Source: Bacteroidales bacterium (GTDB taxonomy: Bacteria; Bacteroidota; Bacteroidia; Bacteroidales; P3). From it: DNA of 56,958 nt. A program made the translations under genes and the position numbers. Below are positions 35,495 to 49,305 of this stretch, one piece after another. The notes under the pieces were generated by a model that had not been told where the DNA came from, searched no databases, and saw nothing but the letters and a program-made list of their open reading frames with translations. The stretch covers positions 1 to 56,958 of the forward strand of contig WRKV01000001.1 of NCBI GenBank assembly GCA_009777915.1, read 5' to 3'. Numbering within the stretch: position 1 is the stretch's first letter; every line of letters begins with the position of its first letter.

Positions 35495-37747
35495 TTAGAA
35501 CAACGACCAAGCTACGGTCAATCCTGCCATCACAATGGATACCATACTCATTAATTTGATCAGGATATTGAGTGACGGACCGGAGGTATCTTTGAACGGA
35601 TCGCCAACGGTATCGCCGACAACAGCAGCTTTGTGAGCGTCTGAACCTTTTCCACCGATATTGCCTTCCTCGATGTATTTTTTAGCGTTGTCCCAAGCAC
35701 CGCCTGCATTTGCCATAAAGATAGCCAACACAAAACCTGCTCCCAAACCTCCTGCTAAAAGTCCCATCACACCGGGAACACCAAATATAACACCTGTGAG
35801 AATCGGCACAGTTACTGCTAATAACGATGGAAACATCATTTCTTGTTGTGCACTTTTGGTCGAAATTTTCACACATTCAGCATAATCGGGTTTGGCTTTA
35901 CCTTCCAAAATACCTTTGATTTCGCGGAATTGGCGACGAACTTCCTCTACCATTTTCTGAGCGGCACGTCCAACGGCATTCATCGTCAAACCGCAGAACA
36001 AAAACGCCATCATCGAACCGATAAAAACACCCACCAATACTTTTGGATTCATCAGCGTAACCTGAAACCAATCCATAAATTGATCAATACTTGCTCCTTT
36101 GATTTCCTCTGCACTAACGCCTTTTAACGGATGATTGCTACCAATAAAATTTCGACCGCTTTCAAGGAATTTCACAGCGTAAATTTTTAACTCCTCAATA
36201 TAAGAGGCGAGAAGTGCCAATGCCGTGAGTGCTGCCGAGCCGATAGCAAAACCTTTGCCGGTGGCTGCAGTCGTGTTGCCAAGAGCATCGAGAGCATCGG
36301 TACGTTTGCGAACTTCGTCGGGCAAACCGCTCATTTGAGCGTTACCGCCGGCATTGTCGGCAATAGGACCGTAGGCATCTGTTGCCAGCGTAATACCTAA
36401 GGTTGAAAGCATTCCCACAGCAGCAATACCAATGCCGTAAAGACCTAAACTCAAATTTTTGGGAGATAAAAGGCCATCGGCAAAATCAAATTGGATCGCA
36501 CAGAGAAAACTCAAAATAATCGCAGCACCAATCGTTACAACAGGAATAACGGTTGAAATCATACCTAATCCCATACCCGAAATAATCACCGTAGCCGGAC
36601 CGGTCTCGCCGCTCTTTGCCACGCGTTGCGTGGGTTTGAAAGAATGCGACGTGAAATACTCCGTGCCTTGACCAATGATAATTCCGGCAATCAAACCGCA
36701 CACTACGGAAAACGAAATACCCACCCAATTTTCCATACCTAATAATTTCAAGATCACAAACGCTGAAATCGCTGTTAATATCGAACTTACATTCACACCG
36801 CGATTCAACGCCGACATCAATTGTTTCATTGAAGAATCCTCTTTAGCTTTCACCAAAAATATACCGATGATGGAAAGGAAAATACCCACTGCTGCGATCA
36901 ACATTGGTGCAAACACCGCTTTAAGTTGAAGCTCTGTATGCCACATAAATGCTGCTGCTCCGAGTGCTGCTGTTGCCAAAATCGAACCGCAATACGATTC
37001 GTAAAGGTCAGCACCCATACCTGCTACATCGCCTACGTTGTCACCCACGTTATCCGCGATAGTTGCGGGATTGCGAGGATCGTCCTCGGGGATACCTGCC
37101 TCTACTTTTCCAACTAAATCGGCACCGACATCGGCTGCTTTCGTGTAAATTCCACCGCCCACACGAGCAAACAAGGCTTGCGTAGATGCACCCATACCAA
37201 AGGTTAGAAGGGTAGTCGTAATAATAATAGTTTTCTCTGCTTGCGTGGCACCATCTACAAAGAAATTAAGCACCACATACCAAACCGAAATATCGAGCAA
37301 AGCCAGACCAACCACCACCAAGCCCATGACGGCTCCCGAGCGGAACGCCACTTGCAACCCGCTGTTGAGCGAACGTTGAGCTGCATTAGCCGTTCGTGCA
37401 GATGCGAAAGTAGCAGTTTTCATACCAAAGAAACCTGCCAATCCGGAGAAAAAACCTCCGGTTAAAAAGGCAAACGGTACCCAAGGATTTTGTAAATTGA
37501 AAAAAGCCATAACCGCAAAGATCACGGCTAAGACCACAAACACCCAAAACACTACTTTGTACTGTTGTTTGAGGTACGACATGGCACCTTCGCGAACGTG
37601 GCGGGCAATGGTTTTCATGGTGTCGGTGCCTTCGCTTTCAAGCATCATTTTTTTGAAAAAATAATAGGCAAAGCCTAAGGCTACTAATGCTGCGACGAAA
37701 GCGATCATCACAGGAATCGGCATAAGAGAAAAAATTTTGTGTTCCAT
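35495..37747 (-). CDS. hppA: membrane-bound ion-translocating pyrophosphatase (K+-dependent subtype by the GNTTAA motif)
   Basis: 750 aa, polytopic. [35 protein letters not shown] and [17 protein letters not shown] motifs. Confidence 0.95.
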
Positions 37748-37925: not shown

Positions 37926-37933
37926 TATCTTTG
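37926..37933 (+). promoter_or_regulatory. -7 promoter box TAtcTTTG (porin-LTD unit)
   Basis: 48 nt upstream of the ATG at 37981. Confidence 0.55.
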
Positions 37934-37980: not shown

Positions 37981-39585
37981 ATGAAAAAACACTTTTTAAC
38001 CTTAGCACTATCTCTGGTTTTCGCCGGAATTACCTACGCTCAACAAGAAGAAGAACGTTTTGAAATCAATCAGTACAATCAGATGGTTCCTACGGTTCCT
38101 CTTGAGGCAACTGCACGAGGCGGCGTTCCGGTGTTGGAAAACAAACGAAAAGGCTACAAATTTTGGTTCGACAGCCGTGTGCAAGTTGATTTTGCAAACT
38201 ACCACAATCAAAAGAATGGAGCACTTAACCTTCCTGATGGAAATATAACGAGCGTTGGAGGTGTAGCCCACCCTGATGCAGAGCCCTATATGCCCGGCGG
38301 AATTTCGTTACGTCGCGTACGCTTTGCTGTCAAGGCGGAAGTCAATGAAAATTGGTATGGCGAACTTGACTTCAACATGGCAAACGGAGTGTTTGGTTTG
38401 CAAGACGCTTATATCGAGTACAACGGTTTAAGCAAATATGGATTGCAATTCAAAGCAGGTAATTTCAAAGAAGACTTTTCGATGGAATATACCACATCCT
38501 CTCGCTTTGTTACCTTTATGGAACGTCCGATGCCTCTTACAGCGTTCAACTTCACACGCCGCCTCGGCGTTCAGGCACAATGGTTGCACAGCGACAATTG
38601 GTTGCGTATGTCGGTAGGCGTTACAGGACAAGAAATAGACGCTTGGCAACTACGCGAACAAGTTGAAGAAGCCATGAAAAGAACGAACAGAGGATCCGGT
38701 CCTAATTGGACAGGAAAGGTTGTTGTGATGCCTTGGGGCGGAATGCCGGATCAAGGGCTACACTTGGGCTACAATATCCAGCATCGTAGCGGTAAATGGA
38801 TCAGCGATGATGTTGTTGTGGGCAATTATGATCCTCGTGCTTGGTATGCCCTGCGTGCCGACTCTCGAAATGCAACGGCTGTAAATCGTACCAAATATCT
38901 GGACACTCGTATGCTCCCCGGTGTAAGGAGTAGCCTCTACCAAGGTTTTGAATTGGCAGGCTACAAAGATGGTTTCAGATTTGGAAGTGAATTTATCACG
39001 GCAAGTGCGATAATGGATAAAGATCTTTTCAATTTCCCGACATTTTCCGGTCCTAATGCCGAGGCTTTGGCTGAACAGTTTGCAAAAAACAAAAAATTCT
39101 ACGGTTTCTATGTGCAAGCCGGTTATCTCTTGTTTGGTGGAAAGTACCGCTACGACCCCAGTCAAAGCGAATTTACACAACCTACACGCGGACAAAAATG
39201 GGGTGATCTCGAAGTATTGTTCCGTTATGACTATTTAGATTTGAACAACGGACAAAAAGATCGAAACCTGTTGCCGGGGGGAGTAGATGCCGGTAGAGCT
39301 ACCGGTATGGGAGAATATCAGCAGGGCGGTTCGGGACATAACTTTACTTTTGGTCTCTCTTACTGGGTAAACAAAAACGTTAGATTTACGGTAAATTACA
39401 TGATTTCTCAAAATGATGTATATTCCAACGGTGGAGCCGGAATCAGTCCGGGAGGTAGAAATGGAAGACCGATTGCGGTTGGTAAAAATGCTGCCGGACA
39501 ATATACCGCAAATCCACTCGATGCGGTTATAGATCCGGGCGTGAGCTTTAATACACTTCAGATGAGATTGGAGATTGCGTTCTAA
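37981..39585 (+). CDS. outer-membrane porin, phosphate-selective OprO/OprP (Porin_O_P) family-like
   Basis: 534 aa with a signal peptide. LRRVRFAVKAEVNENWYGELDFNMA...LQDAYIEY...FKAGNFKEDFSMEYTTSSRFVTFMERP fits the Porin_O_P pattern. Terminal aromatic residue (..LEIAF). Confidence 0.72.
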   Translation: MKKHFLTLALSLVFAGITYAQQEEERFEINQYNQMVPTVPLEATARGGVPVLENKRKGYKFWFDSRVQVDFANYHNQKNGALNLPDGNITSVGGVAHPDAEPYMPGGISLRRVRFAVKAEVNENWYGELDFNMANGVFGLQDAYIEYNGLSKYGLQFKAGNFKEDFSMEYTTSSRFVTFMERPMPLTAFNFTRRLGVQAQWLHSDNWLRMSVGVTGQEIDAWQLREQVEEAMKRTNRGSGPNWTGKVVVMPWGGMPDQGLHLGYNIQHRSGKWISDDVVVGNYDPRAWYALRADSRNATAVNRTKYLDTRMLPGVRSSLYQGFELAGYKDGFRFGSEFITASAIMDKDLFNFPTFSGPNAEALAEQFAKNKKFYGFYVQAGYLLFGGKYRYDPSQSEFTQPTRGQKWGDLEVLFRYDYLDLNNGQKDRNLLPGGVDAGRATGMGEYQQGGSGHNFTFGLSYWVNKNVRFTVNYMISQNDVYSNGGAGISPGGRNGRPIAVGKNAAGQYTANPLDAVIDPGVSFNTLQMRLEIAF

Positions 39586-39634
39586 ACTTACAAACACAAA
39601 TCAAACAAATTATAAACAAAACACAATAAATACT

Positions 39635-40498
39635 ATGAAAAAGATAATCCTCGCCCTTGTGGCACTCTCAGTTGTTTTCGTTGCTTGCTTAAAGAACGAC
39701 CCCCCAGCTTCAACATTGTCCGTACAAGATGTTGAAATGTCCAACCCCTTACCGGGATCGGACGAAAATGTTACCATTACCGTTGTGGTAAAAGAAGTTA
39801 AGCATACCATCACTTCCGTAGTCATTGAATGGAAAAAAGACGAAATTGCTCAAACATCCATCACCATGACTGCCGGAGCTAACGACACCTACACCGGTAC
39901 AATCCCCGGACAACCGGACGGAACTACAGTAACCTTTACTATCAAGGCGACCAACAGTGACGGCAAAACAGAAACCTCAGCATTAAATACCATTATGTGG
40001 GTAGACGAACTCCCGTGGTTTATGTATGTAAAACTCAACGAAGTTAGCGGTGTCGGCGGTGATCCCGATAAATTCTATGAGCTGATCAACATCGGTACTG
40101 AGCCCATCGACTTGCACAATTTTACGATTCACTACAATGCAAACGGTGCAGTCAGTGGATCTTTTCCGCCTAACGACAACCGTTTGACATGGACAGGTTG
40201 TGAAGCTCAAATAATACAGCCGGGGGAATTGCTTACTTTGCTTGGTCGTGATACACCATGTTCGTTCGGAACAGGATTGACAGCAGCCCGCATCTTGGTT
40301 ATTACATTGAGTGCTCCTAACGGAACCGTTGTTGACCAATGTATCAGAACAAAGGATCAAGGCGAATACACCATAACCGATAAATCCTACTCACGTATCC
40401 CCGATGGAACAGGTACATTCTATTTCACCACTCCCTCGCCCAATGTGATGAATGGCAATGATGCCACGGGATTGACGGAAGTGCCGAGTACGCCGTAA
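39635..40498 (+). CDS. lipoprotein with Ig-like module and lamin-tail domain (LTD)
   Basis: Lipobox VFVAC. LTD signature VKLNEVSGVGGDPDKFYELINIGTEPIDLHNFTIHYN. The N-terminal module is paralogous to residues ~395-470 of the 809-aa protein. Confidence 0.7.
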   Translation: MKKIILALVALSVVFVACLKNDPPASTLSVQDVEMSNPLPGSDENVTITVVVKEVKHTITSVVIEWKKDEIAQTSITMTAGANDTYTGTIPGQPDGTTVTFTIKATNSDGKTETSALNTIMWVDELPWFMYVKLNEVSGVGGDPDKFYELINIGTEPIDLHNFTIHYNANGAVSGSFPPNDNRLTWTGCEAQIIQPGELLTLLGRDTPCSFGTGLTAARILVITLSAPNGTVVDQCIRTKDQGEYTITDKSYSRIPDGTGTFYFTTPSPNVMNGNDATGLTEVPSTP

Positions 40499-40543
40499 TC
40501 CATAATTCACAACAAACTTAACGTGTAATTCAAAAAAAAGTTG

Positions 40544-40551
40544 TATCTTTG
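40544..40551 (+). promoter_or_regulatory. -7 promoter box TAtcTTTG (mazF module)
   Basis: Context gttgtatctttgcaaaaaa is shared with the two other TA-like pairs. Confidence 0.55.
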
Positions 40552-40568
40552 CAAAAAAATCAAAAACA

Positions 40569-40778
40569 ATGGAAACATTAGACATCATACGTAATGTAAA
40601 CCGATTGCCTTTGCCACAACAAATGTGGGTTGCAGAGCGTATCATACATTCGATACGACAACAACAGCAACCTTCAATGGAAATGGCAGCAGAACGCTTG
40701 AAATCAGACTACACAACCGATGAAAATTTAACAGCATTTACGCAACTTGACAGCGAGGACTTCTATGAAACAAGGTGA
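40569..40778 (+). CDS. putative antitoxin partner of MazF (no recognisable MazE/AbrB motif)
   Basis: 69-aa ORF directly upstream of the mazF-like gene, overlapping it by 14 nt. Acidic C-terminus. Confidence 0.45.
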   Translation: METLDIIRNVNRLPLPQQMWVAERIIHSIRQQQQPSMEMAAERLKSDYTTDENLTAFTQLDSEDFYETR

Positions 40779-41106
40779 AATATGGCTGATAAATTTAGAT
40801 CCTACGATCGGTGCTGAGATGAAAAAAACTCGTCCGGCAGTGATTGTTAATGATGATCAACTTGGCAAATTGCCGTTGAGAGTCATCGTTCCGATTACCG
40901 ACTGGAAAGAACATTACAGCACGGCTTCGTGGATGGTAGCAATTAATCCGTCCGCTCAAAATGGACTTACCAAAAAATCATCGGCGGATTGTTTTCAAAT
41001 ACGTTCGGTATCGAAAGATCGTCTAATAAAGCAAATTGGGAGTATCACATCTTACGAAACCCTCCAAATACAAGAAGGCATTGCAAGGATTGTAAGTTTG
41101 ATATAA
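40765..41106 (+). CDS. mazF: MazF/PemK-family endoribonuclease toxin
   Basis: MKQGEIWLINLDPTIGAEMKKTRPAVIV...VPIT...FQIRSVSKDRL is the typical PemK pattern. Confidence 0.85.
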   Translation: MKQGEIWLINLDPTIGAEMKKTRPAVIVNDDQLGKLPLRVIVPITDWKEHYSTASWMVAINPSAQNGLTKKSSADCFQIRSVSKDRLIKQIGSITSYETLQIQEGIARIVSLI

Positions 41107-41192
41107 ATTACCCCTCCGGCACGGCTTGCAATCCGTGCAAACCAAACAACTAAACAACCCAAAAAAATATAAACAATCAAAACAATCAAACT

Positions 41193-43622
41193 ATGAAAAA
41201 AACAAACATTTTCAAAACACTCGTCGCGATAGTGATGGTGTTTTTTATGAGCATTTCGATGTTCGCTCAAGCACCGATAAGTGCGTACGTTCCTGCAGGT
41301 GCAGGTTCTGGGGTTAGTGGCAATGATGTTACAATTCCGAGTACCGTAACAGGTATTGACTTTATCTTTAGAGCAACGGGAAACGGTAACAATGTTACAG
41401 ACTGGACAGGTTGCTCTTTTATTGTACGTCGTATCCAATTCAATGGATCAATCGGCTTAATCATTAAACTTGGAAGTACGTCCGCAAGCAAAATTACGAT
41501 CATTGGAAACTCATCAGGTTCAGGCTTTCGAGCCATCACATCTGTTACTGCAAGCAGTACGGTAGATGGCACGTACACTGCTGTTACAGGTGCAACTGTT
41601 GGCGATATGACGTTTTATGGTACCGGTACTGAACCCGATTCAAATGTAGGCTGCTGGTCTTGGACGGTTGATGATTTAGATCTTGCCGAAGGCACTTTTG
41701 TTAAATTTGTTTTTAATAATAACGTTAATCTTGGTGGTGTTGAAATCACTCCGACTTCAGGTGGCGGAGATCCGGTTGACTACAGCAAATTAGTGGTAAA
41801 CGAAGTTAGCGGCGAACACAAATATGTTGAGATCTACAACTCGGGCACGGTTTCTATTCCTTTGGAAGGCGTGAGACTTCAAAGAAATGACGGACCTACA
41901 GGCGGTAGCGAAAGACTTCACGTAGCGGGCGATGTAATTCCTGCCGGAGCGTATCGCCTCTACTTGTTCAACAGTTTTACTCCTACTGGCAGTGCTGCCT
42001 ATAGTGGCACTTCAACGCTTGTTGATAAAGTAACCGGACTAGATACCTATCCTGAATTTGTCGGATGGAGCGTTAGTTCTGGCATATCCGATCAGCAAAT
42101 TCTGAAAATAGCCCTCGTTGATCCGGATGGTGCTGAGATTAGCACGTTTATTCGTGGAGATGCTCCACTTCCCGCTTGGGGCGGAGATGCTGCACGGGTT
42201 CGCACTCACAGTTATTCTCGTATGACAGATGGTACTTGGGCTTATGCCGTTCCTACACCGGGAGCCGAAAATGGAGCAAAAGTAAGCGATATCGTAGATC
42301 CGGGTTATTTGACAGAGACACCTGCTGATGCAGTTGGCTTAGTCATCGAAAGTGCCACAGCTGCTGAAACCAATCCGGTATTTGACGAGGACGTTATCAT
42401 CACCGCTGTAGTAACAGACGATGTAAACGAGGTTGAAACAGTAGTTATCGAATGGAAAATAGGTGCTGTTGACCAAACACCTATCCCTATGGAGGCAGGC
42501 GTGGGAGCCTTGACAAGCACTTATACTGCTGATATTCCCGGACAAGCTGAAGGTGTGACGGTAACATGGAAAGTTACAGCAACCAACGACGACGGTGATG
42601 AGGTTTCGTCAGACGAAGGAACCATCATCTGGAGAAGCTCTTTAGACCCCATCGTTGCAGGAGATCCTGATGCCCTTGCAGGCAAACTGCTGATTTGGCA
42701 GGCTTTCGGCACAGGCTCAGGTGGAGGTGCCGGTGTGAACCGCTCTTTCTTGGAGTTGTACAACACAACCGAAAACGCCATAGATTTGGCAGGCATCACG
42801 CTGTTTTATGCTGATGGAACCGATATGTCTAACAACGTAAGCACGGAAGATGGCGAATGGAAAGCCATTTCGTTGACCGGAACCTTGCCGGGAGGAACTT
42901 CTTTCCTTGTTTTAGGTCCTGTACGTGGCTCAAGTTCGCGCCTCAACATAGATGCGAATTACGGAGATATTAACGATGATGATTTTGTGTTGAGCAACAG
43001 AGCGTTCAAGGCAGCCCTTATACGCAATGCAAACGCTGATTTAATCGCCCAAAATCCGTTTGATATGGATGGCAATGGTGCGGTAGCAGAGGGTTATATC
43101 GATATGCTTGGCTCAGCGAATTCGTTCTCTGACAATGGTAATAATCGCGATAGAATCAACGGTTACGAGATGGCTCCATCACGTAATTCAGGATCAGAGG
43201 CTGTTCGACGCGGCTCTCTTGTGGATACCGATAACAATAGCGTGGATTTTGTGAGTACACGTTATGCCTCAGGCACAGGCGGTATTACCGATGTTGAAAT
43301 GGAATTGTTCAGACCTAAAAATATGACGTTTGGTGCATGGAATCCGCTTGGCGATCCGGCATCAGTACAACCGCTTTTGAATGGAGGACTAATCGCTGTC
43401 TATCCAAATCCTGTGGAGAATGAACTTACCGTAGAAATCGAAAACCCAACGCAGAACACCATCTATCGGATTTTCGACCTTAGCGGAAAACAACTCAAAA
43501 CCGGCAGACTGAACGCCGTTACAACCCAAATCCCAATGGGCGATCTCAGCGAGGGCATGTATGTTCTCAGCATTGAGCAGAACGGGCAAGTCGTGCAGTC
43601 GTTGCGAGTGGTAAAACAATAA
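41193..43622 (+). CDS. T9SS-secreted protein with two lamin-tail domains and a type-A C-terminal sorting domain
   Basis: 809 aa with a signal peptide. LTD-like LVVNEVSGEHKYVEIYNSGTVSIPLEGVRL and RSFLELYNTTENAIDLAGITLFY. CTD VYPNPVENELTVEI...GMYVLSIEQNGQ...RVVKQ. Confidence 0.75.
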   Translation: MKKTNIFKTLVAIVMVFFMSISMFAQAPISAYVPAGAGSGVSGNDVTIPSTVTGIDFIFRATGNGNNVTDWTGCSFIVRRIQFNGSIGLIIKLGSTSASKITIIGNSSGSGFRAITSVTASSTVDGTYTAVTGATVGDMTFYGTGTEPDSNVGCWSWTVDDLDLAEGTFVKFVFNNNVNLGGVEITPTSGGGDPVDYSKLVVNEVSGEHKYVEIYNSGTVSIPLEGVRLQRNDGPTGGSERLHVAGDVIPAGAYRLYLFNSFTPTGSAAYSGTSTLVDKVTGLDTYPEFVGWSVSSGISDQQILKIALVDPDGAEISTFIRGDAPLPAWGGDAARVRTHSYSRMTDGTWAYAVPTPGAENGAKVSDIVDPGYLTETPADAVGLVIESATAAETNPVFDEDVIITAVVTDDVNEVETVVIEWKIGAVDQTPIPMEAGVGALTSTYTADIPGQAEGVTVTWKVTATNDDGDEVSSDEGTIIWRSSLDPIVAGDPDALAGKLLIWQAFGTGSGGGAGVNRSFLELYNTTENAIDLAGITLFYADGTDMSNNVSTEDGEWKAISLTGTLPGGTSFLVLGPVRGSSSRLNIDANYGDINDDDFVLSNRAFKAALIRNANADLIAQNPFDMDGNGAVAEGYIDMLGSANSFSDNGNNRDRINGYEMAPSRNSGSEAVRRGSLVDTDNNSVDFVSTRYASGTGGITDVEMELFRPKNMTFGAWNPLGDPASVQPLLNGGLIAVYPNPVENELTVEIENPTQNTIYRIFDLSGKQLKTGRLNAVTTQIPMGDLSEGMYVLSIEQNGQVVQSLRVVKQ

Positions 43623-43633
43623 TGCTTAATCAA

Positions 43634-43662
43634 GGGGGTAGTGTTTCTGCCCCCTTTTTTTT
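43634..43662 (+). terminator. intrinsic terminator after the LTD/T9SS gene
   Basis: ggggg-tagtgtttctg-ccccc followed by T8. Confidence 0.75.
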
Positions 43663-43697
43663 CAAAATGGATATTTGTATTTTTCAAAAAAAAATTG

Positions 43698-43705
43698 TAT
43701 CTTTG
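43698..43705 (+). promoter_or_regulatory. -7 promoter box TAtcTTTG (DUF4160/DUF2442 pair)
   Basis: aattgtatctttgtaaaaaa, 14 nt upstream of the ATG. Confidence 0.55.
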
Positions 43706-43718
43706 TAAAAAAAACTAA

Positions 43719-43997
43719 ATGCCCAAGATTCTCACACATCTAAGTTGGATATTCTTTGTTTACAGTGAAAACGAAAGAGCACATCTACACATCTACAGAA
43801 AAGGAAAGCAGCAGAGCCGATCGGCGGAAATCTTTTTAGAAAAAAATGGGAAAAGAGAATTGGAATGGGCGTCTTATGGCGACTATAAAAAAGAGATTGC
43901 ACAGATAGAAAAAATAATTAATGAAAATTACGATGTGCTTATTCAGTCAGTGAAGAAGTCAATGTCCGGCATAAAAGTTAAAACCATAAAAAAATAA
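43719..43997 (+). CDS. DUF4160-family protein
   Basis: 92 aa. WIFFVYSENERAHLHIY...AEIFL pattern resembles DUF4160 (F.FYS.E...PH.H). Paired with a DUF2442-like ORF. Confidence 0.65.
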   Translation: MPKILTHLSWIFFVYSENERAHLHIYRKGKQQSRSAEIFLEKNGKRELEWASYGDYKKEIAQIEKIINENYDVLIQSVKKSMSGIKVKTIKK

Positions 43998-44001
43998 TAT
44001 C

Positions 44002-44262
44002 ATGGAAGGATTTTTTAGAATAAAACCGACAATCAAAAAATTAGGTTTCGAGCAACGCGGAAAAATGTCCATTTACTTGCACGATGGGCGAACAGTCATT
44101 GTGCCTGTTGCCTCTTTTCCCAGCATAAAGAAACTTAAAGAACCTGACAGAAAGCACTATCAAATTATTGACAAAGAACTTTTTACATTTGATAAAACCA
44201 ACGAAATTTTTCATGTCGAACAAGTGCTGGGTAAGGAAAATTGCTATTCCTACCAGTTCTGA
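44002..44262 (+). CDS. DUF2442-family protein
   Basis: 86 aa. IYLHDGRTVIVPVASFPSIKKLKEPDRKHYQI pattern. Canonical partner position after DUF4160. Confidence 0.6.
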   Translation: MEGFFRIKPTIKKLGFEQRGKMSIYLHDGRTVIVPVASFPSIKKLKEPDRKHYQIIDKELFTFDKTNEIFHVEQVLGKENCYSYQF

Positions 44263-44286
44263 TTTTATTTGTAGAAAAACAAATTG

Positions 44287-44294
44287 TATCTTTG
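44287..44294 (+). promoter_or_regulatory. -7 promoter box TAtcTTTG, 6 nt from the ATG (probable leaderless)
   Basis: aaattgtatctttgtaaaaaATG. Confidence 0.5.
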
Positions 44295-44300
44295 TAAAAA

Positions 44301-44603
44301 ATGATGAATAAGAACGATATAAAACTCAGAAAAAGCCTGTTTTGGGATGTGGATATTGAACAATTAGATATCGACAAGTATCCGGCTTATGTATTGCAAC
44401 GAGTTTTGGAATATGGAAAATGGGAAGAATGGGTACAATTCCGTTCGTATTATCCCATGGAATTGATAAGAGAAACGGCTATGAACCTGCGAACACTTCG
44501 TCCGGAAGTTCTTAGTTATATCGCTCTTTACACAGATACAAATATAGAAGACTATCGATGTTACAAATTAGCACAATTACACCCGACACTTTGGAACTCT
44601 TGA
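44301..44603 (+). CDS. putative antitoxin-position protein (DUF6922-like) upstream of the AbiEii-type nucleotidyltransferase
   Basis: 100 aa. SLFWDVDIEQLDIDKYPAYVLQRVLEYGKWEEW pattern. Overlaps the next gene. Confidence 0.5.
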   Translation: MMNKNDIKLRKSLFWDVDIEQLDIDKYPAYVLQRVLEYGKWEEWVQFRSYYPMELIRETAMNLRTLRPEVLSYIALYTDTNIEDYRCYKLAQLHPTLWNS

Positions 44604-45169
44604 AAAAGTTGCAAAGTATGCCTGAATTGGCAGAAACACGGCTTGTCGGAGGCACTGCCTTGGCTTTGCTTTTGGGACATCGTTTGTCAATTGATTTAGA
44701 TTTATTCGGAAAAATTGACCAAGAAGTTACAACGAGAGCATTACAAGAGCAAAATTTTAAGAATTTTGAGATACTGTCTGAAAGCAAAGCTATCAAACAC
44801 TACATGATCAATGATGTTAAAGTTGATATTGTAAAATACGATTATTATTCGTGGTTGGAAGAAATGATAGTTGAGAATGGAATCAGACTTGCGGGATTGA
44901 AAGATATTGCTGCAATGAAAATAGGAGCAATTACCAATCGTGGTAGCAGAAAAGACTTTATAGACTTGTTTTTCCTTTTGAAACAGTTTAACATGAAAGA
45001 AATTCTTGAGTTTTATCAGACGAAATATCCGGATCATAGCATACGGGCTACAATCCAAAGTCTAAGTTATTTTATCGATGCTGAAAAAGAGGATATGCCC
45101 AAAATGCTTATCCCCGTAACATGGAACGAAATGAAAAAACAAATTATTGACGAAGTAAAAAAACTATAA
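44558..45169 (+). CDS. nucleotidyltransferase, AbiEii/AbiGii toxin family (DUF1814-like)
   Basis: 203 aa. RLVGGTALALLLGHRLSIDLDLF and RGSRKDFIDLFFLL motifs. Confidence 0.78.
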   Translation: MLQISTITPDTLELLKKLQSMPELAETRLVGGTALALLLGHRLSIDLDLFGKIDQEVTTRALQEQNFKNFEILSESKAIKHYMINDVKVDIVKYDYYSWLEEMIVENGIRLAGLKDIAAMKIGAITNRGSRKDFIDLFFLLKQFNMKEILEFYQTKYPDHSIRATIQSLSYFIDAEKEDMPKMLIPVTWNEMKKQIIDEVKKL

Positions 45170-45217
45170 AAAAACAATCAAAAACAATCAAAACAAAACA
45201 AAAACAAAACAATCATC

Positions 45218-45853
45218 ATGAGTGAACTAAAAATCGGAGAAATCTCCAAACCCAGATTCGAGTTCCGTTCCTTTGGACAGAACTTCAACAACGCGTGGAA
45301 ACGTATGTCACGCCTATCCGTACCTGTACCCGAAAAAGTGTGGGAAAGACAGAGCGACGAAGTCTACATCATCAGTCGTACCAACGACATCAACAACACC
45401 AAAATCCGTGACGGAAAGATGGACATCAAGACCTACGTGCAAACCGTAGACGGTCTCGAACAGTGGAACCCGCTAATGAAAGGCGAATTCCCAATAGCGA
45501 AAGAAGTGTTGGAAAACGACGTGTTTCCTGCGTTTCAGGTGGAAATGCCGAAACTGGACAAACCAACGTATACCTACGACGAGTTTATGACCATGATCAA
45601 AGCTAATAAAGATTTGGCAGCGGTAAACGTACATAAACAACGTTTCGGATTTATGGTCAACAACACCATCTGCGAAGTGGGTTATGTGCTTATCAACGGT
45701 GCACGTGTAACGACCATCAACAGCGAATCTACCGAAATCGAAGACATCAAAAAAACCATCACTGATTGCCAGCTCGAGGGCGTGGAGAATATCAATTATC
45801 TCCAAGTTATCAAACGAGTGATTGGGATGAGTGATAAACCTTTAGCAAATTAA
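45218..45853 (+). CDS. hypothetical protein; possible divergent CYTH/triphosphate-tunnel fold
   Basis: 211 aa. Alternating charged beta-strand pattern FEFRSF / KIRDGKMDIKT / VHKQRFGF / CEVGYV / INSES resembles CYTH, but the EIERKF signature is degenerate. No own promoter box. Confidence 0.35.
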   Translation: MSELKIGEISKPRFEFRSFGQNFNNAWKRMSRLSVPVPEKVWERQSDEVYIISRTNDINNTKIRDGKMDIKTYVQTVDGLEQWNPLMKGEFPIAKEVLENDVFPAFQVEMPKLDKPTYTYDEFMTMIKANKDLAAVNVHKQRFGFMVNNTICEVGYVLINGARVTTINSESTEIEDIKKTITDCQLEGVENINYLQVIKRVIGMSDKPLAN

Positions 45854-45857
45854 ATTT

Positions 45858-45937
45858 GGTACACGGTGAACGGTGCAGGGTAAACGGTGGGCTTGTGGCG
45901 AAGCACCGTGTACCTTTTACCGTGTACCGTGTACCGT
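45858..45937. repeat. imperfect 'word' hairpin: 32-nt arms of GGTGAAC/GGTACAC/GGTAAAC heptads, loop containing GGCGAAGC
   Basis: Left arm ggtacacggtgaacggtgcagggtaaacggtg. The reverse complement of the right arm is ggtacacggtacacggtaaaaggtacacggtg (about 25/32 match). Lies between the two CYTH-like cistrons. Confidence 0.7.
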
Positions 45938-45949
45938 AAAAAAAAAGTT

Positions 45950-46420
45950 ATGGCACAAGAAATAGAAAGAAAATTCCTCGTAAAAAACGAGAATTTCAAA
46001 ACAGAAACATTCAAACAAACCCGCATCACGCAGGGTTATTTATCGTCTGTTCCGGAGCGTACTGTACGCATTCGTGTGAAAGGCGAAAAAGGTTTTATTA
46101 CCATCAAAGGTATTGGTAACGATAGCGGTGCAAGCCGTTTCGAGTGGGAAAAAGAAATTCCTGCAAGCGAAGTGATGGACTTGATGAAAATCGCCGAACC
46201 CGGCGTGATCGACAAGACTCGCTATCAAGTGAAAAAAGGAAATCATACGTATGAAGTCGACGAATTTTACGGCGAAAATCAAGGTTTGACCGTTGCCGAA
46301 ATCGAACTTCAAAGTGAAGACGAATCCTTTGAAAAGCCCGAATGGCTTGGCGAAGAAGTAACCGGAGATGTGAAGTATTACAACTCAATGTTAATGAAAA
46401 ATCCGTATACGAAATGGTAG
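45950..46420 (+). CDS. CYTH-domain protein (triphosphate tunnel metalloenzyme)
   Basis: MAQEIERKFLV... canonical EIERKF start, plus RIRVKG, ITIKG, RFEWEKEI, EVDEF and VAEIEL strands. Confidence 0.85.
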   Translation: MAQEIERKFLVKNENFKTETFKQTRITQGYLSSVPERTVRIRVKGEKGFITIKGIGNDSGASRFEWEKEIPASEVMDLMKIAEPGVIDKTRYQVKKGNHTYEVDEFYGENQGLTVAEIELQSEDESFEKPEWLGEEVTGDVKYYNSMLMKNPYTKW

Positions 46421-48009
46421 ACTGTAAAAAAATCGACGTGCTCGACATGAACAACTACAAAATCGAGCGTATGCCAACCCGTCCAAGATCAAGTTTGGAA
46501 ACTTGGATGATGAGAATCGGTGCACCTTTGGCAGCAATCGCCTTTGTGTGGATTTATTGGTTTGCAAGCATTCCGTTTTTGGATACATTCGATGTAACTG
46601 CCCTCACCGGAGATGCAATCAAACGCTTTGAAACGCTTGGAGAAAGCGGGTTTTCACGAATCAACTATGCGATGTTGGCGATATTTGTGGCATCGGTAAT
46701 TCTGTGGATTACGGAAGCCGTGCCGTCGTATCTCACCTCGTTATTCGTGATTTTAGCGATTGTTCTCACAGGCGTTACCACAGAACGAGCCGCTTATGCC
46801 AATCTCGGACACCCGGTGATGTGGCTCAATTTACTCTCGTTCGTTTTGGCGAGTATGCTCGTGAAAACACAAGTTGCCAAACGTTTTGCGTTGTGGTTCG
46901 TGGTGCATTTCGGCAAGAATGCAACTTGGATATTTTTCAGTTTCATCGTGATTAACGTTGTGCTTTCGGCATTCATTTCCGCAACCACAGCCAAAGCAGC
47001 GATTTTGTTGCCGATTTTCATGGTGATTGCAGCGATTTACGGTTCGACAGGAGGCGAAAATCGTAACAATTTCGGACGAAATATCGTGTTGCAAAACTTG
47101 TTTCAAATCAACATGACCGCCGGAGGATTTATGACCGGTTCGGGTGCCAATCTTTTGGCGGCTGCAATGATCATCGGAGCAGGCGGTTTGTTTGGCTATC
47201 AACAGTGGTTTGTGGTGGCATTTCCGATGTGCTTGCTTTTGGTTATCATCGGTTGGATTGTCGGAACAAAAATTTATTTTCCACTGAAAAAAGGGGAGTC
47301 TGTTCCGCAAATTCAAGGCGGAATGCAACGTTTGAAAGAAGAGTTGCACAAACTCGGCACGATGAAATTTGTGGAATACAAAGCTGTCGCGATTTTCGTT
47401 GGCGTGTTGTTTATGTGGACCACCAAAGGTTCGTTTCACAACATTAGCGAAACCGCTGTAGCCTTTATTGGTGCTGTGATTGCACTCACGCCGGGCATCG
47501 GAATTGTGAAGTGGAACGATGTAGACGTGCCTTGGCATTTACTGCTTTTCTCGGCAGGTGCTTACACACTCGGATCGGGTTTAGATAGCACGAATCTCGC
47601 AGGAACCATGATAGACACGCTGTTCACACGTTGGGGACTTACCGACGACACACCGTTTTGGATCTTGTTTACCATCATCACCGGAGCGATGCTGTTCAGT
47701 GCGTTAATTTTCCAATCGAAAACCATGCGTTGCTTGATTTTTATACCGATTGCCATTGGTATAGCACAGCGATTCGGGTTCCCGATTGTGAGCTTGGCAG
47801 TGCCTGTGGCGTTGTTGATCGAACACGTTTACGTGTTGCCGTTCAACAGCAAGCCCGCCGTATTGCTCTACGGAACCAACCATTACAGTTGGGCAGACAC
47901 ATTCAAATTCGGTTTCACCATGATGATAATCGCATGGATTGTGTTGTTCATCTGGGGACAAACCGTAATGAAATGGCTTGGATATTTGCCGAATGGCGTA
48001 TTTTATTAA
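46414..48009 (+). CDS. DASS/SLC13-family sodium-coupled anion symporter
   Basis: Polytopic, about 530 aa. ILWITEAVPSYLTSL and PFNSKPAVLLYGT motifs typical of DASS permeases. The start is uncertain: the ATG at 46414 overlaps the CYTH stop (ATGGTAG); the alternative ATG is at 46447. Confidence 0.82.
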   Translation: MVDCKKIDVLDMNNYKIERMPTRPRSSLETWMMRIGAPLAAIAFVWIYWFASIPFLDTFDVTALTGDAIKRFETLGESGFSRINYAMLAIFVASVILWITEAVPSYLTSLFVILAIVLTGVTTERAAYANLGHPVMWLNLLSFVLASMLVKTQVAKRFALWFVVHFGKNATWIFFSFIVINVVLSAFISATTAKAAILLPIFMVIAAIYGSTGGENRNNFGRNIVLQNLFQINMTAGGFMTGSGANLLAAAMIIGAGGLFGYQQWFVVAFPMCLLLVIIGWIVGTKIYFPLKKGESVPQIQGGMQRLKEELHKLGTMKFVEYKAVAIFVGVLFMWTTKGSFHNISETAVAFIGAVIALTPGIGIVKWNDVDVPWHLLLFSAGAYTLGSGLDSTNLAGTMIDTLFTRWGLTDDTPFWILFTIITGAMLFSALIFQSKTMRCLIFIPIAIGIAQRFGFPIVSLAVPVALLIEHVYVLPFNSKPAVLLYGTNHYSWADTFKFGFTMMIIAWIVLFIWGQTVMKWLGYLPNGVFY

Positions 48010-48021
48010 AATAGAAATAAC

Positions 48022-49305
48022 ATGAAAGAATATATAGATTCCTTACCGCAAGATTTTATCAACTTCTTTTTAGTAACCGTATTTTCGTTACTAATCGGGT
48101 TGTCGCAACGCCGAATTAATTTACAAAGTAACAGTAAAAAGTTTTTTGGATCCGACCGAACGTTTACGCTCATCGGGATTTTAGGATTTATTCTGTACAT
48201 CTTAGAACCGCAATGTATGTCGCTGTACGCCGGAGGAGGTTTGATTTTGGGCGTTATTTTGACCGCAAATTATGCTCTCAAAATGTATCATTTCAAACGC
48301 TACGGCATCACTGCAATTATCACGGCATTCCTCACGTATTGTATGGCACCGCTCGTGATTACGCAACCTATGTGGCTTTCGCTGTTGGTGGTGGTGATCA
48401 TTTTGTTGATTACCGAAATGAAAGAAACATTTATCAATTTCGCCAAAAGACTCAATAATGACGAATTTGTAACGTTAGCCAAATTTATTCTGATCGTTGG
48501 AATTATTTTACCGATGCTTCCGGATACGCCGATTGTAGAGGGTATTTCGCTCACACCGTACAAAATTTGGTTGGCAACAGTGGTCATCTCAATCATTTCA
48601 TATTCGTCGTATTTGTTGAATAAATTTGTATTTCCGAAGTCGGGTATTATGCTTTCGGGCATACTGGGCGGGATATACAGCAGCACGGCAACCGTTGTGA
48701 TTTTAGCCAAAAAATGTAAAACAGCCGGCGAACAAGATGTGAAAGAATACGCAGCAGCAGTGATTGCGGCGATTTGTATGATGTATGTGCGTGTGCTGGT
48801 AATTGTGGCGATTTTTAATCAAGTATTGTTTGCCAAAATGTTGGTATACTTCTTGATTATGATTGCGGTTTGTGGCAGTATTTCAGCGTTTCTGCACTTT
48901 TATCAACGAAAGCGAGAAGAGATCATCTATCACGAAGAAACCAAAGTGGATGAAAACCCTCTGGAATTCAGAGTGGCGTTGATTTTCGCTTTGTTGTTTA
49001 TAGTGTTTACGATTGCGACCAAATATACGATCGAATATTTCGGAACGATGGGGTTGAATGTATTGTCGGTACTGTCCGGAATTGGAGATATTACGCCGTT
49101 TTTGCTCACGCTTTTCGATGGCAAATATGATGTAACCAACACCATGATCGGGCTTGCTACATTTCAAGCCATCATCAGCAGTAATGCGTTGAAATTGGCT
49201 TATGGTATCGGATTTTCAGGCAATCGCAAAGGTTTCTCACGTGCACTGACATGGGCACTTTGCATTATTGTTGGAGTCAATATCTTGTTGCTGTTTTTTA
49301 TGTAG
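48022..49305 (+). CDS. MgtC/SapB-like N-terminus plus DUF4010-type polytopic membrane protein
   Basis: 427 aa, about 10 TM segments. N-terminal LLIGLSQRR...DRTFTLIGILG resembles the MgtC-family GlERe...RT motif. Confidence 0.6.
   Translation: MKEYIDSLPQDFINFFLVTVFSLLIGLSQRRINLQSNSKKFFGSDRTFTLIGILGFILYILEPQCMSLYAGGGLILGVILTANYALKMYHFKRYGITAIITAFLTYCMAPLVITQPMWLSLLVVVIILLITEMKETFINFAKRLNNDEFVTLAKFILIVGIILPMLPDTPIVEGISLTPYKIWLATVVISIISYSSYLLNKFVFPKSGIMLSGILGGIYSSTATVVILAKKCKTAGEQDVKEYAAAVIAAICMMYVRVLVIVAIFNQVLFAKMLVYFLIMIAVCGSISAFLHFYQRKREEIIYHEETKVDENPLEFRVALIFALLFIVFTIATKYTIEYFGTMGLNVLSVLSGIGDITPFLLTLFDGKYDVTNTMIGLATFQAIISSNALKLAYGIGFSGNRKGFSRALTWALCIIVGVNILLLFFM

Follow-up and report, generated by a model that had tools for sequence, protein, structure and literature searches.

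The stretch of DNA analysed in this study (the window: 56,958 nucleotides (nt), contig WRKV01000001.1 of the Bacteroidales assembly GCA_009777915.1, here genome G000) carries on its plus strand, between positions 45218 and 46420, two adjacent genes for proteins of 211 and 156 amino acids (aa). The second encodes a canonical member of the CYTH family and the first a protein, termed X211 here, that has no match in Pfam, NCBIfam or PADLOC scans. An AbiEii nucleotidyltransferase gene lies directly 5' of the pair and an anion symporter gene directly 3' of it. A preliminary description of the locus had proposed two readings: either the pair forms a nucleotide-based conflict module with the AbiEii toxin, or it belongs with the downstream transporter genes. 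Gene order across genomes favours the transporters. The features of the locus, each with the evidence on which it was called, are as follows.

35495-37747, minus strand: H+-translocating pyrophosphatase (H+-PPase) gene (Pfam H_PPase, 1.1e-273), context with a condensed-phosphate theme.
37926-37933, plus strand: TATCTTTG box, putative promoter, 48 nt 5' of the porin ATG (pattern search).
37981-39585, plus strand: phosphate-selective porin O/P family gene (Pfam Porin_O_P, 1.6e-25).
39575-40498, plus strand: lamin-tail-domain (LTD) protein gene (Pfam LTD, 8.7e-07; 29.7 bits, below the family cut-off of 34.3 bits).
40544-41106, plus strand: toxin-antitoxin (TA) cassette 1, inserted; promoter repeat, small open reading frame (ORF) and PemK/MazF toxin gene (Pfam PemK_toxin, 5.3e-26).
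41193-43622, plus strand: gene for an 809-aa LTD protein with a type IX secretion system (T9SS) sorting tail (Pfam LTD, 1.6e-15; Por_Secre_tail, 1.9e-11).
43632-43656, plus strand: terminator-like GC hairpin with T-run 3' of the LTD gene, ancestral (terminator scan).
43698-44262, plus strand: TA-like cassette 2, inserted; TATCTTTG box with DUF4160 (Pfam, 3e-05) and DUF2442 genes (Pfam, 6.5e-04; 20.3 bits, under the family cut-off of 23.9 bits).
44287-45169, plus strand: TA cassette 3, inserted; TATCTTTG box with the DUF6922 and AbiEii genes (Pfam, PADLOC).
44301-44603, plus strand: DUF6922 gene (Pfam DUF6922, 8.9e-19).
44558-45169, plus strand: AbiEii nucleotidyltransferase gene, 203 aa (PF08843, 3.6e-13; PADLOC AbiEii, 1.3e-11).
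45170-45217, plus strand: A/C-rich leader of 48 nt with no promoter box (sequence).
45218-45853, plus strand: X211 gene, 211 aa, predicted variant triphosphate-tunnel (CYTH-fold) protein (AlphaFold2, Foldseek).
45858-45935, no strand assigned: hairpin of heptad words between X211 and CYTH, a dispersed repeat resembling repetitive extragenic palindromic (REP) elements (fold energy, genome matches).
45950-46420, plus strand: canonical CYTH gene, 156 aa, NeuTTM-like, predicted inorganic triphosphatase (Pfam CYTH PF01928, 2.4e-16).
46414-48009, plus strand: DASS (SLC13-type) anion symporter gene (Pfam Na_sulph_symp, 1.5e-53; TIGR00785, 5.8e-59).
48022-49305, plus strand: DUF4010/MgtC-family membrane protein gene (Pfam DUF4010, 2.7e-48).

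The start of the DASS gene is most likely the ATG at 46414, which overlaps the CYTH stop codon (ATGGTAG), since the N-terminus obtained in this way aligns with the orthologue in locus L001 of the congener G401. The DUF4010 gene begins 12 nt past DASS, and its product also has an orthologue in L001 (73%). The window retains the ancestral set of H+-PPase (minus strand), Porin_O_P, LTD and LTD/T9SS genes, and the TATCTTTG box before the porin gene (37926-37933) is the likely ancestral operon promoter.

The 156-aa protein, recognised in the preliminary description from its EIERKF signature as a textbook triphosphate-tunnel protein, proves to be just that. It begins MAQEIERKF, it shows the motifs ExExK (EIERK), RIR, KTR, EVDE and EIE, and it matches the PDB entries 3typ/2fbl (Nitrosomonas NE1496, NeuTTM) at ~2e-17 over its full length; it is also the sole CYTH protein of the genome. 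Triphosphatase-type triphosphate-tunnel (TTM) proteins are marked by ExExK with no HF motif four residues ahead of it, by an intact ExE, and by a small residue, not W/Y, preceding RxR (PMC8233210), and NeuTTM itself is a characterised triphosphatase (PMC3440374, PMC8233210). The 156-aa protein displays this signature (MAQEIERKF with three residues before the motif and no HF, then TVRIRV and AEIELQ), and the W/Y before RxR that marks thiamine triphosphatase (ThTPase) is absent from it. In common with NeuTTM and CthTTM, both of them bacterial single-domain CYTH (PF01928) inorganic triphosphatases, it has the motifs ExExK, RxR, KxR, ExD and ExE. It is thus predicted to be a NeuTTM-like inorganic triphosphatase. 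Cyclase chemistry had been offered as a further option and finds no support, given that class IV adenylyl cyclases (CyaB-like) have an HFxxxxExExK extension and the second Glu of ExE changed to Ala (PMC8233210). Neither X211 nor CYTH has the HF extension, and CYTH keeps EIE.

X211 is the less familiar half of the pair. Its family comprises 3,680 close homologues, and the whole protein library contains 1,037 of its clusters at the 50% identity level; the window protein shares ~80% identity with named members from Rikenellaceae (Tidjanibacter), Polaribacter and Cloacibacterium. In one genome of the same order (G420, C77:6107-7482) two X211 paralogues stand in tandem, one with 78% and the other with 39% identity to the query. 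The members examined are "hypothetical" at NCBI, and one is named "CYTH domain-containing protein" in UniRef. A 341-aa protein (P0113) considered as an X211-CYTH fusion is missing the C-terminal part of X211 and, with ExExK, the N-terminal part of CYTH, and occurs on a single contig; it was treated as a deletion or assembly artefact and was not used as evidence. The preliminary description had suspected a diverged CYTH fold from the strand pattern of the 211-aa protein, whose motifs (PRFEFRSF, KIRDGKMDIKT, VHKQRFGF, CEVGYV, INSES) are present as described, and structure prediction bears the suspicion out. The AlphaFold2 model (built on 52 homologues; pLDDT 90.7, pTM 0.86) contains eight strands and five helices, arranged beta1-alpha-beta2-5-alpha-alpha-beta6-8-alpha-alpha with the strands in CYTH order. 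In a Foldseek search of the PDB, ranks 1-25 were taken exclusively by triphosphate-tunnel/CYTH proteins, among them mouse and human ThTPase (5a64, best E 2.5e-6), AtTTM3, SaTTM, 1yem, 2gfg and 3sy3, with probability 1.00 and TM ~0.5. A profile search of the PDB gave a weak match to the CYTH protein 1yem (E 0.19) that places KxR and the following Glu in register. Calmodulin, the only match in a single-sequence PDB search, was judged to be chance and rejected as a relative. When 90 diverse family members (28-74% identity) were scanned against Pfam, scattered chance matches were obtained and none to PF01928 at E up to 0.1. The interpretation of X211 as a diverged CYTH/TTM-fold protein that family libraries have not catalogued is supported by the structural model. 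Relative to NeuTTM and CthTTM, X211 would share the eight-strand tunnel topology; it is ~55 residues longer, has two extra helices at 95-129, and falls below all Pfam, NCBIfam and PDB sequence thresholds.

The genomic setting of the pair was characterised in 96 non-redundant X211 loci, of which 80 came from Bacteroidales genomes (collection scan), 12 from an even phylum sample and 4 from other sources; related loci are not independent, and the counts are accordingly descriptive and not tests. CYTH follows X211 directly on the same strand in 92 of 93 loci, at a median gap of 7 nt, and DASS lies within 3.5 kb in 80 of 82. The proposal that the two genes go with the downstream transporter genes is thereby strongly supported. 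Further constituents recur at the locus, namely Porin_O_P (88/96), an LTD protein between porin and X211 (82/96), PhoU_div (58/96), MgtC at the position of DUF4010 (35/96), a SdiA-regulated/phytase-like propeller (22/96) and, downstream of the operon, H+-PPase (13/96). The usual order in Bacteroidales is PhoU_div, a membrane protein with GerE, Porin_O_P, LTD, X211, CYTH, the propeller where present, DASS, and then MgtC or a 475-aa protein, all separated by short gaps. Polaribacter shows Porin_O_P, LTD, X211, CYTH and DASS. A Caldithrix-type contig and one large genome have X211 and CYTH followed by TctC/B/A, PhoU_div and PHO4, the Caldithrix-type contig having Porin_O_P in addition, and in one further genome X211-CYTH stands with a divergent DASS. 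In the even phylum sample of 401 genomes X211 was found in 14 and CYTH in 136, so X211 is to be regarded as accessory, the partner of only some CYTH genes.

Based on this evidence, X211 and CYTH probably constitute a conserved two-gene cytoplasmic tunnel module of a phosphorus-scavenging operon, as the cytoplasmic end of a route for taking up and hydrolysing condensed phosphate: pyrophosphate (PPi), tripolyphosphate (PPPi) or short polyphosphate (polyP). The gene content (Porin_O_P, PhoU_div, PHO4, Na/Pi cotransporter, H+-PPase) supports the notion of a Pho-type acquisition operon, as far as gene families can indicate function. A literature search returned no paper on the X211-CYTH pair or on CYTH in phosphate loci of Bacteroidota.

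On the other side of the pair is the AbiEii gene, whose identity and 48-nt CA-rich spacer before X211 are confirmed. The 203-aa protein is a bona fide AbiEii and, as in AbiE (AbiEi/AbiEii), a type IV TA and abortive-infection system, it has a small, overlapping partner gene upstream. That partner is DUF6922 and not a recognised AbiEi, and X211 and CYTH are no part of AbiE. The comparison with congeners is instructive. In L001 of G401, whose X211 is 96% identical, a GC hairpin with T-run comes after the LTD gene and X211 starts ~20 nt further on, with no TA cassette between. The window has the L001-type hairpin (43632-43656) and after it ~1.5 kb with DUF4160/DUF2442 and DUF6922/AbiEii before X211 is reached; the PemK cassette separates the two LTD genes. 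Each of the three cassettes is preceded by one copy of a 37-nt promoter-bearing repeat, D2 (40529-40565, 43683-43719 and 44272-44308), of the form TTCAAAAAAAA-TTGTATCTTTG-AAAAAA and containing TATCTTTG. The congener G404 (locus L139, C29, 5407-7608) carries DUF6922-AbiEii (72% identical) with the AbiEii stop 7 nt before an X211 that is 95% identical to that of the window. There, a different pair of small ORFs lies 5' of DUF6922-AbiEii, in which a nucleotidyltransferase-like motif (GSVARGE) and a HEPN-like motif (RNFIAHDYHR) were noticed by eye only. DUF4160/DUF2442 is absent from the X211 locus of both L001 and G404. With different TA pairs in two congeners and none in the third, the slot between LTD and X211 presents itself as a TA insertion hotspot of the genus, and since the window species and G404 both have DUF6922/AbiEii beside X211, that pair has occupied the slot since the two diverged.

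Neither AbiEii nor DUF6922 occurs in any of the 96 other X211 loci, congener G401 included; their adjacency to X211 is confined to G000 and G404. As judged from gene order, the AbiEii pair is a lineage-specific insertion into an ancestral porin-LTD-X211-CYTH-DASS operon and not a functional partner. The examination of co-occurrence across genomes that the preliminary description had suggested thus came out in favour of DASS and against AbiEii. It follows that a single nucleotide-based abortive-infection module made of AbiEii toxin, DUF6922, X211 and CYTH is highly improbable. The genes are indeed neighbours on one strand, no promoter box or terminator separates them, and the order DUF6922-AbiEii-X211 returns in G404 with a 7-nt gap. 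Against this stand the ties of X211-CYTH to transporter and phosphate genes across phyla, the absence of PADLOC matches for X211 and CYTH, and the missing class IV cyclase HF motif in CYTH (PMC8233210). Moreover, the slot 5' of X211 is filled by DUF4160/DUF2442 here and by the nucleotidyltransferase-like/HEPN-like pair, known from motifs only, in G404. The window therefore holds no new CYTH-based defence system, and a false lead is removed.

Transcription is a separate matter from function. A single transcript comprising the AbiEii pair, X211 and CYTH is plausible, considering that no promoter box or terminator was found between 44287 and 45218. Because of this, and with the ancestral hairpin placed 5' of the cassettes, transcription of X211-CYTH-DASS-DUF4010 in the window genome now probably starts from the TA promoters. 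Co-transcription of AbiEii with X211, if real, is a by-product of the insertion and not a sign of joint function. What the window documents is an operon whose intergenic slots gather TA cassettes, which are probably now its source of promoters. The claim that neither X211 nor CYTH has a TAnnTTTG box stood for the spacer before X211. For CYTH it did not, a TAAATTTG match being present on the plus strand at 45851-45858, where it overlaps the X211 stop codon 92 nt 5' of the CYTH start. This match may well be chance, as the window contains 96 TAnnTTTG matches and relatives have only ~7 nt at this place. A/C-rich leaders that resemble each other (CAATCAAAACAATCAAAC) lie at 41161-41204, before the 809-aa LTD gene, and at 45163-45215, before X211, both of them directly 3' of a TA toxin gene; the resemblance of the former to the X211 leader comprises CAATCAAAAC (repeat D1).

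How X211 could function in the module can be judged from its tunnel residues. E15, R17, Y50, K71, W83 and K140 are invariant in the alignment of 90 members, and R13, N60, K62, R64, E81, R142, E153 and E170 nearly so. Paired by strand order with the residues of canonical CYTH proteins, the conserved positions read as follows.

Strand beta1: RxExR in X211; ExExK in canonical members.
Strand beta2: ExY in X211; Q/DxY in canonical members.
Strand beta3: NxKxR in X211; RxR in canonical members.
Strand beta4: DxK in X211; K in canonical members.
Strand beta5: ExW in X211; ExE in canonical members.
Strand beta6: KxR in X211; KxR in canonical members.
Strand beta7: E in X211; ExD in canonical members.
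Strand beta8: single E170 in X211; ExE in canonical members.

The hallmark of CYTH proteins is an N-terminal ExExK on strand 1 that serves in metal and substrate binding (PMC8233210). Metal site 2, which activates the attacking water, is formed in AtTTM3 and ygiF by the Glu residues of ExExK together with the second Glu of ExE, and one invariant Glu keeps the substrate-metal complex in site 1 (PMC4641920, PMC8233210). Strand 1 of X211 instead reads R13-F-E15-F-R17, with E15 and R17 invariant and R13 found in at least 90% of the 90 members. Strand 8 has one conserved Glu, E170 (at least 90%), between variable flanks, in a register that hhalign does not establish significantly; it may stand for either Glu of the canonical C-terminal ExE, of which the first serves metal 1 and the second metal 2. 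The basic ladder is complete, in that K62-x-R64, K71 and K140-x-R142 on strands 3, 4 and 6 are found in at least 90% of members, K71 and K140 even in 90 of 90. As read from the alignment, X211 retains the basic ladder and a single Glu in each of the acidic strands, but metal site 2 has lost part of its acidic patch to replacement. X211 can be seen as a natural experiment on a triphosphate tunnel with metal site 2 dismantled.

Comparable changes are known from the Arabidopsis proteins AtTTM1/TTM2 (CYTH cluster 7) and from yeast Vtc4p, which have TTM folds with no acidic patch and still act on condensed phosphate: AtTTM1/2, with neither ExExK nor ExE, show a preference for PPi (PMC8233210), and the activity of Vtc4p is that of a polyP polymerase (PMC4641920). 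These proteins are eukaryotic, multidomain and unrelated in sequence to X211, the loss in X211 is partial with one Glu of ExExK retained, and AtTTM1 (7z67) appears only at rank 12 in the fold search. E. coli YgiF (CYTH and CHAD) offers a conceptual parallel as a tunnel triphosphatase with a second, polyP-binding module (PMC6537752), such that a catalytic unit is combined with a chain-handling unit. The second module of YgiF is an alpha-helical CHAD domain on the same chain, whereas X211 is a separate protein of TTM fold, or is fused to Ppx in other taxa.

The link to Ppx enlarges the functional picture. In the single locus without CYTH (G053), a Ppx/GppA gene lies directly 3' of X211, and in 2,570 proteins of ~497 aa Ppx-GppA (PF02541) is joined to an N-terminal domain resembling X211. 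The window has CYTH as the partner instead, and the Ppx of the window genome is unfused and encoded elsewhere. X211 thus partners two unrelated hydrolases of condensed phosphate, by which polyP, PPPi or PPi is indicated as the class of its ligand. Both partner types, CYTH triphosphatase and Ppx, leave PPi as end product, and it is partly for this reason that a PPi-directed role of X211 is considered. A bolder form of the proposal, which we put forward tentatively as possible rather than probable, regards X211 as a TTM branch not described before. It would be the obligatory second component of condensed-phosphate breakdown with CYTH or Ppx, in a dedicated import route for PPi, tripolyphosphate or polyP made up of Porin_O_P, LTD and DASS or TctABC. 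X211 could then clear the PPi left by its partners, or else open long chains. A literature search found no inner-membrane carrier for external PPi, tripolyphosphate or polyP, and we know of none that has been described.

Alternatively, X211 could be a catalytically dead pseudo-TTM, that is, a regulatory or scaffold subunit in a heteromer with CYTH or Ppx that tunes activity or substrate length and perhaps senses cytoplasmic Pi or polyP. We consider this unlikely, while noting that RxExR in place of ExExK and the single Glu left in the last strand are what it would lead one to expect, since AtTTM3 and ygiF require the acidic residues both to form metal site 2 and to be catalytically active (PMC4641920). 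The tight 7-nt spacing from CYTH and the very high conservation towards the Rikenellaceae, Polaribacter and Cloacibacterium members point in the same direction. However, pairing with two unrelated folds (CYTH and Ppx/GppA) speaks against a CYTH-specific interface, and a full set of charged tunnel residues shows little or no variation even at 30% identity, as would be expected of a working ligand site. TTM proteins with no ExExK/ExE can be enzymes, besides, as shown by the PPi preference of AtTTM1/2 (PMC8233210).

The mechanistic scenario suggested for the phosphorus-scavenging module would be the following. A Porin_O_P-type outer-membrane channel, together with LTD surface proteins, would let in phosphate or condensed phosphate. 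The DASS symporter would import polyanionic phosphate species, a task that TctABC with PhoU_div and PiT could assume in other phyla. The NeuTTM-like CYTH would split tripolyphosphate into PPi and Pi. X211 would bind the same class of ligand through its variant tunnel, with E170 on the last strand possibly in the place of the canonical metal-site-1 Glu, and would either act as a hydrolase on a neighbouring substrate, be it PPi or a longer chain, or pass the chain to its partner. The fold, the gene order and both the adjacency and the fusion to Ppx are what the analysis shows; the substrate, the direction of transport and the catalytic status of X211 are inferred. The AbiEii pair and the two other TA cassettes would have been inserted into intergenic spots of the operon in this genus.

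Several points weigh against this scenario. In hhalign, the X211 family did not reach significance against a shallow CYTH profile (E 0.23 and 0.043 over 37 columns), and for this reason the homology of X211 and CYTH rests on a predicted structure of moderate TM (~0.5). The residue correspondences were inferred from strand order and not by superposition. X211 lacks the full ExExK/ExE set and may be non-catalytic. AbiEii abuts X211 in a second species, G404. A ppk1 and an unfused ppx (the latter on contig C79) are encoded elsewhere in the window genome, in which no PPK2 was found, so that polyP made by the cell itself could be the substrate. Carboxylate or sulfate is the assigned cargo of DASS and TctABC carriers, and to our knowledge none is known for condensed phosphates.

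The last two points lead to a different understanding of the locus, in which X211-CYTH act on endogenous metabolites (PPPi from adenosyltransferases, or the cell's own polyP) and the transporter imports an unrelated di- or tricarboxylate. The presence of ppk1 and ppx elsewhere in the genome counts for it, as does the fact that DASS and TctABC are best known as carboxylate carriers; the two X211-Ppx fusions examined, furthermore, lie in non-phosphate neighbourhoods. Yet Porin_O_P, PhoU_div, PiT, Na/Pi cotransporter and H+-PPase genes are linked to the pair repeatedly in Bacteroidota and, beyond that phylum, at least in Calditrichota, and a housekeeping detoxifier is hard to reconcile with such repeated linkage, making this explanation quite improbable. 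If the phosphorus-scavenging module is the correct interpretation, a "hypothetical" family of more than 1,000 clusters (50% identity) gains a fold and a pathway context, and transporters of the DASS and TctABC types gain condensed inorganic phosphates as a candidate class of substrate. The finding would also bear on the recycling of polyphosphate by gut, rumen and marine Bacteroidota.

Further proteins are associated with the locus. Conserved proteins of ~475 aa and ~748 aa with no Pfam match are encoded 3' of DASS (L008, 9962-11389 and 11469-13715; also L084, 10881-12338), the ~475-aa protein in ~33 related loci, Polaribacter included, and both are possible further components of the X211 pathway. 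In many Bacteroidales the operon is headed by PhoU_div and, beside it, the gene for a polytopic membrane protein of 543 aa (L008, 2818-4449) whose C-terminus carries a LuxR/GerE helix-turn-helix; the protein may act as a one-component membrane sensor-regulator of the X211 locus.

Lastly, the spacer between X211 and CYTH is unusual in the window, measuring 96 nt compared to ~7 nt in relatives. It contains the hairpin at 45858-45935 (-47.9 kcal/mol, z -5.1), which is made of heptad words and has 24 matches elsewhere in the genome, with related copies on at least 9 other contigs; the 10-mer ACCGTGTACC occurs 31 times in the genome as against ~2.4 expected. The hairpin is absent from L001. Its interpretation as a terminator was rejected, given that an A-run follows on the plus strand, that there is no T-run on either strand, and that the element is a dispersed repeat absent in relatives; it is best seen as a REP-like insertion. 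Members of the hairpin family consist of tandem heptad words (GGTACAC/ACCGTGT) flanking a GTGGCGAAGCAC loop. Copies in G000 are located at C186:1205-1339, C68:10966-12111 and C25:12560-12603 and on C153, C151 and C2, the copy on C186 being followed by a T-run and hence terminator-like.

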